The position numbers and the translations under genes were made by a program. From contig DIZY01000119.1 in the NCBI GenBank assembly GCA_002428055.1, positions 1,855-52,892 on the forward strand: a stretch of 51,038 bases of DNA. Direction: 5' to 3'. Origin of the DNA: Helicobacteraceae bacterium UBA6016. GTDB taxonomy: Bacteria; Campylobacterota; Campylobacteria; Campylobacterales; UBA6016. A model generated the notes under the pieces. The model was not told the origin of the DNA. It did not search any database and saw nothing but the letters and a program-made list of their open reading frames with translations. Positions 36,718-38,181 of this stretch are shown piece after piece; the stretch's first letter is position 1, and each line of letters opens with the position of its first letter.

Positions 36718-37548
36718 TCACCCCAACACAAACGGATTTATCTCATACCGACTCCCCTCGCGCTCAATAGTCAAATGCTTTTGGACAATAGCCGGATACT
36801 CCTCTAGCTTGCCGTTTATCTTTGAGACCGTTTGGCGAAATCTGCCCGTAAACTCCTCTACAAATACACGGTAGTTGTCGTAAAATTCGTTTGCCTCGCA
36901 AAAGGCGTTAAACTCTGTCGTGTAGTCGTTTTCGAGGTCAACCGCTCCGCCGCAAACCGCCAAAAATGCAAACATTGCCGCTTCTTGAAGTGTCAGCTCT
37001 ATCTCGTGTCCCAAAAAGTAGACGCTTCGCTCTTTGACAAAAAACCTTTGTTCGCCGCACTCCCCAGATAGTCTTTGCAGGTAGACTATCGGAGTTTTGC
37101 CGTCGCTTATCGAGACCTCGCCGCACTGAGATACCGCTACCTTCTCGTTTTGGGGGAAAAATGATTTTTCTTCGAACGCTTTTAGGGTCTTTACGACAAA
37201 TGTCGGTATCTCGCCAAGTTCTTGTGCAAAAAGATATGTCATCCAGTTGGTTCCGCTGGCTACTACTCCTAGAGGCGGGTACTTGAGCGAGCCTATGATG
37301 TGCCTGAGGCTTATTTTGTACTCGTTTTGGTCGCTATCGCTTCCAGATGCATCTACAAACTCTCCGTATACACTGTAGTTAAGCTCAGCAAAAAAAGCAT
37401 CCATCACCTCCTCTGCCCCTTTCATCGCCGAATGAGTCGTGATTATGTGTAGCTTGTGAATGTCGTATTGCCCTTTTAGCAGTGAAACGGCGATGGTTAG
37501 CGGCTGATATGTGAGTCCGCATTGAATTATTAGCTCTATTTTTTCCAT
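36718..37548 (-). CDS. CARF-like N-terminal domain fused to a winged-helix (OmpR/Csa3-like) C-terminal domain
   Basis: Rossmann-like start KIELIIQCGLTYQPLTIAV, then KLHIITT and GVVASGTNWMTY (compare the CARF motif xTGGTKxM). The C-terminus VYFLGHEIELTLQEAAMFAFLAV...FRQTVSKINGKLEE...EGSRYEI resembles a trans_reg_C-type wHTH. AAGGAG lies upstream of the ATG. Confidence 0.45.
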   Translation of the reverse strand: MEKIELIIQCGLTYQPLTIAVSLLKGQYDIHKLHIITTHSAMKGAEEVMDAFFAELNYSVYGEFVDASGSDSDQNEYKISLRHIIGSLKYPPLGVVASGTNWMTYLFAQELGEIPTFVVKTLKAFEEKSFFPQNEKVAVSQCGEVSISDGKTPIVYLQRLSGECGEQRFFVKERSVYFLGHEIELTLQEAAMFAFLAVCGGAVDLENDYTTEFNAFCEANEFYDNYRVFVEEFTGRFRQTVSKINGKLEEYPAIVQKHLTIEREGSRYEINPFVLG

Positions 37549-37575
37549 TTAATCTCCTTGTTTTTAATATATCTG

Positions 37576-37755
37576 CTAGTCATCCCAATCGCTATCACAA
37601 AAGCCGTCCATATCATTGTCAAAACAGCTCCACGGAGAGCCAAAGTTATCATCGCAGCTGCATCCATCGCCTGCGCCGGAAGAACATCCTCTGGATGACG
37701 GGAAAAATAGCGAAATAAATACCATAAAACCAAAAATCGCTCCAATTGTCTGCAT
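37576..37755 (-). CDS. uncalled 59-aa protein: N-terminal hydrophobic helix plus Cys/Asp-rich tail
   Basis: ATG 37755 is preceded by AGGAGATATAAA and lies 15 nt after the upstream stop. Translation: MQTIGAIFGFMVFISLFFPSSRGCSSGAGDGCSCDDNFGSPWSCFDNDMDGFCDSDWDD. It falls below the ORF-track cutoff. Confidence 0.5.
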   Translation of the reverse strand: MQTIGAIFGFMVFISLFFPSSRGCSSGAGDGCSCDDNFGSPWSCFDNDMDGFCDSDWDD

Positions 37756-37770
37756 TTTATATCTCCTAGT

Positions 37771-38181
37771 TTAAGAAACGCTAATCGCCCATTTAAAAAA
37801 TGCGATCCACATCTTCACAATACCTTTGGCAAGCTCATTGTCGGTTGTCAAGCTAATCACCAAAAACATCAGAGAAGCCAACAGATAAGCTAACAGCCAA
37901 AATCTTATCCCCCGTTCAATCCGAAAATATTTATATAAAAAATCAGTGTACGGCACAAAATACCACCATGCGCCAAACCCAAGACCAAAGAGCGTTCCGC
38001 CCCATTTAGCAATATTTAGCCCACCGCCAATCCAATTGCCTATCTCATACCCGATGATCGCAAACGGAAGATATGGATAAACAAAAATAAATATCGCAAT
38101 AGCAAAGCCAATAGCAAAACCGTTGTCATTGTCGCCGCCGGAGCTGCCTACGGCATAACCGAAAATAAAATCATCATTCAC
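37771..38181 (-). CDS. small integral membrane protein (136 aa, ~4 TM, Gly/Trp-rich)
   Basis: GTG start preceded by GGAG at 9 nt. Hydrophobic segments include FAIGFAIAIFIFVYPYLPFAIIGY, WGGTLFGLGFGAWWYFVPY and IRFWLLAYLLASLMFLVISL. Confidence 0.6.
   Translation of the reverse strand: MNDDFIFGYAVGSSGGDNDNGFAIGFAIAIFIFVYPYLPFAIIGYEIGNWIGGGLNIAKWGGTLFGLGFGAWWYFVPYTDFLYKYFRIERGIRFWLLAYLLASLMFLVISLTTDNELAKGIVKMWIAFFKWAISVS

Follow-up and report, generated by a model that had tools for sequence, protein, structure and literature searches.

What is the task of three small genes that stand back to back with a type III CRISPR locus? The window analysed here, a stretch of 51,038 nucleotides (nt) from contig DIZY01000119.1 of Helicobacteraceae bacterium UBA6016 (assembly GCA_002428055.1), carries a minus-strand trio encoding proteins of 136, 59, and 276 amino acids (aa), divergent from cas6, which is followed by cas10. 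To our knowledge, type III accessory proteins are almost all enzymes or pores switched on directly by cyclic oligoadenylates (cOA), and the only transcriptional receiver studied is the archaeal Csa3, which acts on type I cas genes. A first reading of this DNA from its letters (the ‘original prediction’) suspended the trio between a cOA-controlled membrane effector cassette and a regulator of the divergent cas promoter. We consider it moderately probable that the 276-aa protein is a cOA-responsive transcription factor, probably an activator, that would control an envelope and membrane regulon. Predicted sites before membrane, envelope, and cas genes suggest that CRISPR alarm signalling can also switch genes on, and the locus provides a concrete, testable case for transcriptional output of bacterial type III signalling.

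Predicted Domains of the 276-aa Protein

The trio is a tight operon, as the original prediction had described it, with gaps of 15 nt (37756-37770) and 27 nt (37549-37575) between its genes and a GGAG or AGGAG Shine-Dalgarno sequence before every start codon. All three proteins have homologues in other genomes, and they are therefore products of real genes rather than chance open reading frames (ORFs).

The same reading had seen a CARF-like fold in the N-terminal half of the 276-aa protein, and structure prediction bears this out. A full-length AlphaFold2 model, built on a 29-sequence alignment, has a predicted local distance difference test score (pLDDT) of 90.7 and contains a CARF fold in its N-terminal half. 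Foldseek searches of the PDB with this model return Csa3, Crn1/Sso2081, Cad1, Cdn1, Cam1, Card1, Can2, and Csm6 with a probability of ~1.0, and all of the best fold matches are cOA-binding CARF proteins. The top full-length match is Csa3 (2wte, E 5e-5), in an alignment that spans both domains; others include Crn1 (7ygh) and the Cad1 CARF domain (9c68, template-modelling score TMt 0.65). Solved CARF structures place the ligand pocket in the loops that follow strands 1 and 4. In the 276-aa family, these loops are the most conserved part of the protein, with motifs that are invariant or nearly so, G11-x-T13-Y-Q-P after strand 1 and A-S-G-T-x-W-M-T after strand 4; the invariant residues are G11, Q15, P16, A97, S98, G99, W102, M103, and T104. 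Thus, the ASGTxWMT motif that had been singled out from the window sequence proved to be invariant across the family, as is the G-x-T after strand 1.

The C-terminal domain, modelled alone as residues 163-276, reached a pLDDT of 91.8, and its top 50 Foldseek matches in the PDB are all effector domains of the OmpR/PhoB type, including BaeR, SaeR, YycF, AdeR, VanR, PhoB, ToxR, CadC, and KdpE. The expected ‘OmpR/Csa3-type’ winged helix is therefore specifically of the OmpR/PhoB type, and not the MarR-like DNA-binding domain found in Csa3 (PMC8844856). Its predicted recognition helix contains the invariant residues R236, S242, K243, I244, and N245. Judged from these models, the 276-aa protein probably joins a CARF-fold sensor to a winged helix of the OmpR/PhoB type and would act as a signal-sensing DNA-binding regulator, and we refer to its gene below as the regulator gene.

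In terms of sequence, the regulator is an orphan. Neither the profiles of Pfam, NCBIfam, and PADLOC (at cut-offs of E <= 0.1-1) nor those of PHROGs match it significantly, and the same holds for PDB sequences. Whether run with the protein alone, with a profile of its family, or with a C-terminal profile, searches of PDB sequences returned only noise, with no Csa3 chain matched; along the same lines, none of 29 family members matches Trans_reg_C (Pfam) at E <= 5, and the C-terminal profile finds no solved member by sequence. A search of 5.8 billion clusters yielded 31 relatives with 44-100% identity, all ~275-290 aa long, and an exhaustive profile search of 1.8 billion representatives only 13 clusters. 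The family is rare, comprising about 30-40 sequences from Campylobacterota, with Sulfuricurvum, Helicobacteraceae, and Campylobacterales metagenome-assembled genomes as named hosts, and a scan of viral contigs for the regulator found no relative.

Faint sequence links to described families exist outside the window. Three family members match Pfam PF24744 CARF-assoc_HTH weakly (~E 0.004), distant relatives match Cas_NE0113/Csx15 (E 1e-5), and family members or distant relatives match the PADLOC models Csx1 and CARF5--CARF (PDLC01904) weakly, with E 1e-3 to 1e-11. The PDLC01904 matches mostly cover the C-terminal domain (E 1e-3 to 1e-7), and the window protein itself does not reach E 0.1 with any PADLOC CARF model. 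Our statements on CARF clades rest on the PADLOC model names and on PMC12825302, in which the CARF5 clade includes Cad1. The claim that the protein cannot be assigned to a described accessory family has to be softened for its family, as distant relatives weakly match CARF5 and Csx15-type models. Three distant relatives, P0036 (521 aa), P0037 (495 aa), and P0040 (485 aa), have the same CARF-type domain and extra unannotated regions, and may be effector fusions of the CARF-type sensor.

A Palindrome at a Fixed Distance from the -10 Element

To the window we added 27 non-redundant related loci (L001-L033, several of them short metagenomic contigs), every one retrieved through its regulator gene; gene calls around the sites come from a simple ORF heuristic. 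Comparison of upstream regions revealed a palindrome with a 12-bp core, RGGAAWWWTYCY, frequently flanked by TTT and AAA, whose ideal form, TTTGGGAA-NN-TTCCCAAA, occurs in L015. An 11-nt core pattern is found 28 times in 208 kb of non-redundant loci, compared with 6.6 +/- 2.5 occurrences expected from Markov simulations (maximum 14, n=200). The palindrome occupies an equivalent place in >20 related promoters, 50-75 nt upstream of the start codon.

The distance from the core to a -10-like hexamer (TAN[AC][AC]T) is nearly constant. The histogram of offsets has a sharp peak at 27 nt after the core (15 hits), with four hits each at 26 and 28 nt and ~0-1 at other offsets, and the composite pattern of core, 26-28 nt, and -10 occurs 38 times in 318 kb, where 4.1 +/- 1.9 are expected. 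With a spacing of 27 nt, the core would therefore lie at ~-51 to -40 and the 20-bp site at ~-55 to -36, in place of a -35 element. In several divergent regions, such as L033 6928, L004 9932, and L029 3259, one site would serve two promoters, each with its -10 placed 27 nt away. The motif is unchanged where the regulator is only 35-45% identical (L027, L017, L018), consistent with its invariant recognition helix. Two other accounts of the motif were set aside: sigma-54, sigma-28, and ECF promoter elements disagree with it in consensus and spacing, and a rule of operator, 38 nt, and -10 (a TTGAAA/TAAAAT pair) was dropped when the histogram gave 27 nt.

Operator-type promoters precede genes of several kinds. 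They stand before the homologues of the 136-aa gene (the ‘136-family’) in the window and in L001, L016, L025, L026, L030, L032, and L033, before the genes of a 154-aa family and a zinc-ribbon gene described below, and before the regulator gene itself. Similarly, they precede lipoprotein genes (TraT in L001; others in L013, L025, and L027), outer-membrane-like genes (L004, L033), cas6 (L010, L029, L030, L033), and cas2 (L029).

Within the 51-kb window, the 11-nt pattern has five matches, of which four (three distinct sites) fall inside the CRISPR island and the fifth, at 1094, outside it. Predicted operator 1 stands before the trio and is followed by a -10-like TAAAAT at the usual distance (Table 1). 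A promoter scan also gives a sigma-70-like pair here, a second TAAAAT at 38203-38208 with a TTGAAA -35 at 38226-38231, and since there are two candidate readings, the exact start site is uncertain. Predicted operator 2 lies beyond csx1 and fronts a gene for a basic 37-aa peptide, the predicted second target of the regulator. Homologues of this peptide occupy the same place in L001 (~20560-20649) and L004 (1419-1529), with the operator ~55-58 nt ahead. The peptide family is 37-41 aa long and very basic (MKKPRI[LM]WA[IM]RPTVR.HGT.KGYNRA...), is always located just beyond csx1 and convergent with it, and has no family match. Of the two roles weighed for the trio in the original prediction, a DNA-binding regulator is the favoured one. 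The predicted operators of the window front the trio and the 37-aa gene and not cas6, which the operator does precede in related loci.

Three observations concern sites of this kind. Transcription from the promoter of the 37-aa gene would run antisense into csx1. On the other side of operator 2, the ORF 48844..49254 (136 aa, plus strand) was rejected as a target: it lies in the CRISPR leader, has no -10 at 27 nt on that side, and is probably spurious. Operator-like cores also occur within the coding sequence of cas6, in eight cas6 genes and at two conserved positions, far above chance: one position is shared by the window (39259-39270), L001 (12263), L008 (11839), and L032 (3696), and the other by L004, L006, L024, and L033. 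The core in the window cas6 encodes G-K-F-L and lies ~110 nt upstream of cas10; such cores could reflect coding conservation or an internal regulatory site.

Membrane Partners and Genomic Neighbourhood

The products of the first two genes agree with their initial description as a Gly/Trp-rich membrane protein and a helix followed by a Cys/Asp-rich peptide. The 136-aa protein contains 18 Gly and 7 Trp, with two strong hydrophobic segments and one or two weaker ones (three to four in total). The 59-aa peptide consists of a hydrophobic N-terminal helix and an acidic Cys/Asp-rich tail (GCxCDD...WSCFDxD...FCD). Neither has a significant match in Pfam, NCBIfam, PADLOC, or PHROGs, and neither contains a soluble domain, so they lack the sensor fused to a transmembrane (TM) segment that defines Cam1-like CARF-TM proteins.

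A single-sequence search with the 136-aa protein returned only itself; its family was recognised by tblastn on the fetched loci and a profile search, the latter giving 19 proteins. Homologues with 30-52% identity lie <=2 kb from the regulator gene in L001, L016, L025, L026, L030, L032, and L033. One further candidate, P0065 in L034 (E 4e-5), is a doubtful member, located in an unrelated defence island without a regulator gene. Homologues of the 59-aa peptide are encoded directly upstream of the regulator gene in L028 (58 aa, 51% identity, E 1e-7) and L032 (61 aa, 50%). In L032, the whole order of 136, 59, and 276 is repeated, with identities of 52%, 50%, and 75%, co-directional with cas6 and sharing the operator; elsewhere the cassettes are partial, with pairs of 136 and 276 or of 59 and 276. 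The 136-family proteins of L016 (668-1066), L025 (9556-9954), and L026 (2865-3263) start with a Cys/Asp-rich stretch (MSYSCDDDYYCDDNYNNGCC). Its likeness to the tail of the window 59-aa peptide is compositional only, and suggests a relationship of fused and split forms; this likeness also hints that the 136-aa and 59-aa proteins work together.

Regulator genes cluster next to type III cas genes or genes of cOA effectors rather than being scattered, as the co-occurrence survey shows. Type III cas genes are adjacent or within <= ~10 kb in 17 non-redundant contexts, the window included. The regulator stands beside III-D genes in the window, L006, L008, L028, and L032; beside III-A-like genes in L001, L004, L029, and L033; beside III-B genes with RT-Cas1 in L013, L017, and L022; and near cas6 at a contig edge in L010, L018, L024, and L030. 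In L027, cas1 is adjacent to the regulator gene and cas10 lies ~10 kb off. One more context contains Card1 and SAVED genes. Most regulator loci with sufficient flanking DNA have type III cas genes alongside; L014, L025, and L026, with >=10 kb on one side, showed no cas or type III genes with the queries used.

The DNA between the regulator gene and cas6 is variable. Besides the 136-family, present in the same eight loci as its operator-type promoters, this interval holds genes for a 154-aa multi-pass family, TM-plus-acidic peptides, LemA with DUF3137, TraT and other lipoproteins, and beta-barrel outer-membrane-like proteins. Most loci have no 136 and 59 partners for the regulator gene, or place it divergent from or convergent with quite different envelope genes. 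For instance, a gene for an 89-96-aa CxxC...CxxC zinc-ribbon protein runs convergently towards the regulator gene's 3' end in about a dozen of the loci collected, near-duplicates among them (L006 10817-11086; homologues in L007, L011, L013, L014, L016, L022-L026, and L033). It often overlaps the regulator gene by ~12 nt, has its own operator-type promoter, and is without a counterpart in the window.

A Proposed Mechanism and Its Alternatives

In the mechanism that we favour, the type III-D complex, through a Cas10 with an intact GGDD motif, would sense foreign RNA and make cOA. The ligand would probably be cyclic tetra-adenylate (cA4), given that Csx3/Crn3, Csx1, and a CARF-TM protein are encoded alongside; CARF5 relatives also accept cyclic hexa-adenylate, cA6 (PMC12825302). 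A dimer formed through the CARF domain would set two winged helices on TTTGGGAA-NN-TTCCCAAA, in which one helical turn separates the centres of the half-sites, and binding of the ligand would change their DNA-binding or RNA-polymerase-recruiting state. The rigid position in place of the -35 element points to a stereospecific contact with RNA polymerase, and hence activation is favoured. Targets in the window would be the regulator’s own operon and the 37-aa basic-peptide gene beyond csx1; as the regulator gene is the last of the operon that it would control, the circuit would be autoregulatory. In related loci, the candidate targets are small membrane proteins, TraT-like lipoproteins, beta-barrel outer-membrane proteins, LemA, the zinc-ribbon protein, cas6-cas10, cas2, and the regulator.

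The induced products could act in two ways. The small Gly-rich multi-pass proteins and TM-acidic peptides could be membrane-perturbing effectors, while the TraT-like lipoproteins, outer-membrane proteins, and LemA of sister loci would point instead to envelope remodelling or exclusion. Drawn together, and tentatively, this would be a transcriptional arm of type III signalling, in which a cOA-bound CARF/OmpR-type activator induces a variable membrane and envelope regulon with positive autoregulation. If true, the response to infection would not stop at enzymes that lie ready for allosteric switching: cells would produce membrane effectors on demand, or remodel their envelope and shut out superinfection. 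Several new small-protein families are nominated as possible immune outputs, namely the 136-aa family, the 154-aa family, the Cys/Asp-rich peptide, the 37-aa basic peptide, and the zinc-ribbon protein.

Several points weigh against a cOA-responsive activator. Both domain assignments depend on predicted structure, and the Foldseek E-values of the winged helix are weak (0.04-0.6, with template-modelling scores of 0.45-0.63). The window protein has no significant profile match to CARF, Csa3, or Trans_reg_C models. Its CARF motif II, ASGTNWMT, is without an evident Arg or Lys in place of the usual basic residue, K123 and K128 being conserved nearby. OmpR-family domains usually bind direct repeats, not inverted ones. 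The link between operator and regulator is correlative, because all scanned loci were collected via the regulator gene. Operator 1 has a perfect core and poor flanks, and its position weight matrix (PWM) score of 12.9 bits is near the noise level of the scan; before the window cas6, there is no canonical operator, only a degenerate TAGAAATTCTA. Finally, sequence alone is compatible with an activator or a repressor.

The lack of a matching CARF sequence model and the missing basic residue also speak for a regulator of the CRISPR island that does not respond to cOA, in which the Rossmann domain would serve dimerisation or bind another ligand and the protein would set basal expression of cas and neighbouring genes, and so do the three loci with no type III genes detected (L014, L025, L026). 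We judge this unlikely: the most conserved part of the protein is precisely the pocket loops after strands 1 and 4, every top fold match binds cOA, and there is a tight association of the gene with type III loci competent for cyclase activity, or with Card1/SAVED effectors. Alternatively, the protein would mainly be a ring nuclease like Crn1/Sso2081, which likewise combines a CARF domain with a wHTH-like one; it would degrade cOA to reset signalling, its winged helix being structural and the membrane genes unrelated cargo. Crn1 structures (7ygh, 8htw, 7z55) are indeed among the best folds, with a root-mean-square deviation of 3.5-3.8 over ~140 residues, and the conserved G11-x-T13 resembles the GxS/T motif I, implicated in ring-nuclease catalysis (PMC8844856). 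The Cas_NE0113/Csx15 matches of distant relatives fit this too, Csx15 proteins having ring-nuclease activity according to a preprint as cited in PMC13462974. However, the locus already encodes Csx3/Crn3, and a protein that chiefly degrades cOA leaves unexplained both the invariant recognition helix and the palindrome at a fixed distance from the -10, which makes it a rather poor candidate as the main function. Ring-nuclease activity and DNA binding are compatible, and self-limiting activity may be an added property of the regulator.

Tight co-transcription in the window, the repetition of the trio in L032, and the existence of CARF-TM effectors, one of them in the window locus, would agree with a single membrane effector split over three genes, in which the CARF protein docks on and gates the 136-aa and 59-aa proteins as a Cam1-like analogue, with the winged helix as an interaction module. 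Such a device is very improbable, as most regulators lack these partners or stand beside TraT, LemA, outer-membrane protein, or zinc-ribbon genes, the operator architecture indicates transcriptional coupling, and the recognition helix is conserved.

Relation to Known Systems

The closest relative in layout is Csa3 of Sulfolobales (PDB 2wte, 6w11, 6wxq), which likewise joins an N-terminal CARF domain to a C-terminal winged helix. Csa3 is a cA4-binding regulator of cas and CRISPR promoters (PMC8844856, PMC8699464). The window protein has no detectable sequence similarity to it and differs in its OmpR/PhoB-type DNA-binding domain; its family is bacterial (Campylobacterota) and located beside type III genes, whereas Csa3 is found beside type I-A, and most of its predicted targets are small membrane and envelope proteins.

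Other likenesses concern one domain at a time. The CARF domains of Cad1 (CARF5) are among the best structural matches (TMt 0.60-0.65), but the 276-aa protein has no deaminase domain. The CARF fold of Crn1 (Sso2081, Sis0455) superposes well, and a GxS/T-like motif I is present; unlike Crn1, the 276-aa protein has an extra OmpR-type domain with a conserved recognition helix and a predicted operator. On the output side, OmpR/PhoB and ToxR/CadC have the same effector fold, made of a beta-sheet platform, three helices, and a C-terminal hairpin wing. In PhoB-dependent promoters, the binding site overlaps the -35 region, and the site predicted here likewise lies over that region. Set against these proteins, the regulator has a CARF input module, no receiver domain, and no TM segment, and its predicted site is an inverted repeat.

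CARF proteins with a winged helix-turn-helix (HTH) are already known, from Csa3 and many predicted regulators. A Domainator survey reported many unannotated CARF proteins with HTH or winged HTH domains that are probably transcription regulators (PMC11754643); it began from recognised CARF profiles, none of which the 276-aa protein matches, and it gave no operator, regulon, or link to membrane genes. Four features are new here: the family is a sequence orphan restricted to Campylobacterota; its output domain is of the OmpR/PhoB type; a palindromic operator can be defined that keeps a constant spacing to the -10; and small membrane and envelope proteins are prominent in the predicted regulon, with recurrent co-transcription alongside the regulator. 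We found no description of such a regulator system in the literature searched.

The Host Locus

Beyond cas10, the locus contains several RAMP proteins, including a TIGR03986/Cas7_IIId protein and a TIGR04423 small subunit, followed by a CARF-TM protein, Csx3/Crn3, Csx1, and a CRISPR array (Table 1). From these assignments, it is a III-D-like locus able to make and use cOA. The window Cas10, the presumed source of the signal, is without an HD domain and keeps its GGDD motif; an equally short form occurs in L006, L008, L028, and L032.

Table 1. Coordinates of the genes, domains, and predicted sites in the window.
Feature	Position	Strand	Basis or remark
276-aa gene, third of the operon	36718..37548	-
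CARF-fold sensor domain, residues 1-125	37174..37548	-	AlphaFold2 model, Foldseek, conserved loops
Beta-rich linker, residues 126-168	37045..37173	-	Model secondary structure; conserved VKTxKxFEEKSFFPQ in alignment
Predicted OmpR/PhoB-type winged-helix domain, residues 169-276 and stop	36718..37044	-	Domain model, Foldseek
59-aa gene, second of the operon	37576..37755	-
136-aa gene, first of the operon	37771..38181	-	GTG start, GGAG Shine-Dalgarno
-10-like TAAAAT	38214..38219	-	Exactly 27 nt downstream of operator 1 core; GTG at 38181
Predicted operator 1	38243..38262, core 38247-38258		AGAAAAATTCCC on minus strand; exact core match, upstream of the trio operon
cas6	38543..39385	+	Pfam CRISPR_Cas6, E 5.5e-12; divergent from the trio
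Short Cas10	39382..40770	+	462 aa; Pfam Cas10-Cmr2_palm2 E 1.6e-18; GGDD in translation
CARF-TM protein	46367..46984	+	PADLOC CARF8--CARF_TM E 3.5e-16
Csx3/Crn3	46977..47273	+	Pfam Cas_csx3 E 3.2e-23
Csx1 CARF-HEPN	47452..48594	+	PADLOC CARF2--CARF_HEPN E 6.5e-32
37-aa basic peptide gene	48597..48710	-	MKKPRILWAIRPTVRAHGTQKGYNRAKEKSSRIKSHL; GGAG Shine-Dalgarno; convergent with csx1
-10-like TAAGAT	48736-48741	-	27 nt from operator 2 core
Predicted operator 2	48765..48784, core 48769-48780		AGGAATTTTTCT; beyond csx1; best PWM match of the window, 18.1 bits
CRISPR array	49272-49528

Some features of the surroundings deserve a record. Upstream of the array, the leader (48850-49260) contains four or five copies of a ATTTACGAACTTTT-like motif, one of them inverted. 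At 30089-32791, a tyrosine integrase gene (30089..31180) precedes genes for DUF3037 and HipA-like kinase proteins; the group probably marks where a mobile or defence island containing the CRISPR locus has its edge. Directly downstream of the 276-aa gene, at 36095-36614 on the plus strand, lie pieces of an AAA_14-type ATPase (a 100-aa N-terminal piece and out-of-frame pieces), probably a pseudogene; in L033, an intact AAA_14 gene (397 aa) separates the 136-family gene from the regulator gene. Similarly, between the 136-aa gene and cas6, the minus strand at 38331-38408 encodes a 26-aa remnant, 69% identical to the XRE/Cro-type HTH protein L008_166, whose intact gene is located between the regulator gene and cas6 in L008, and the window arrangement may derive from an L008-like one through gene decay.

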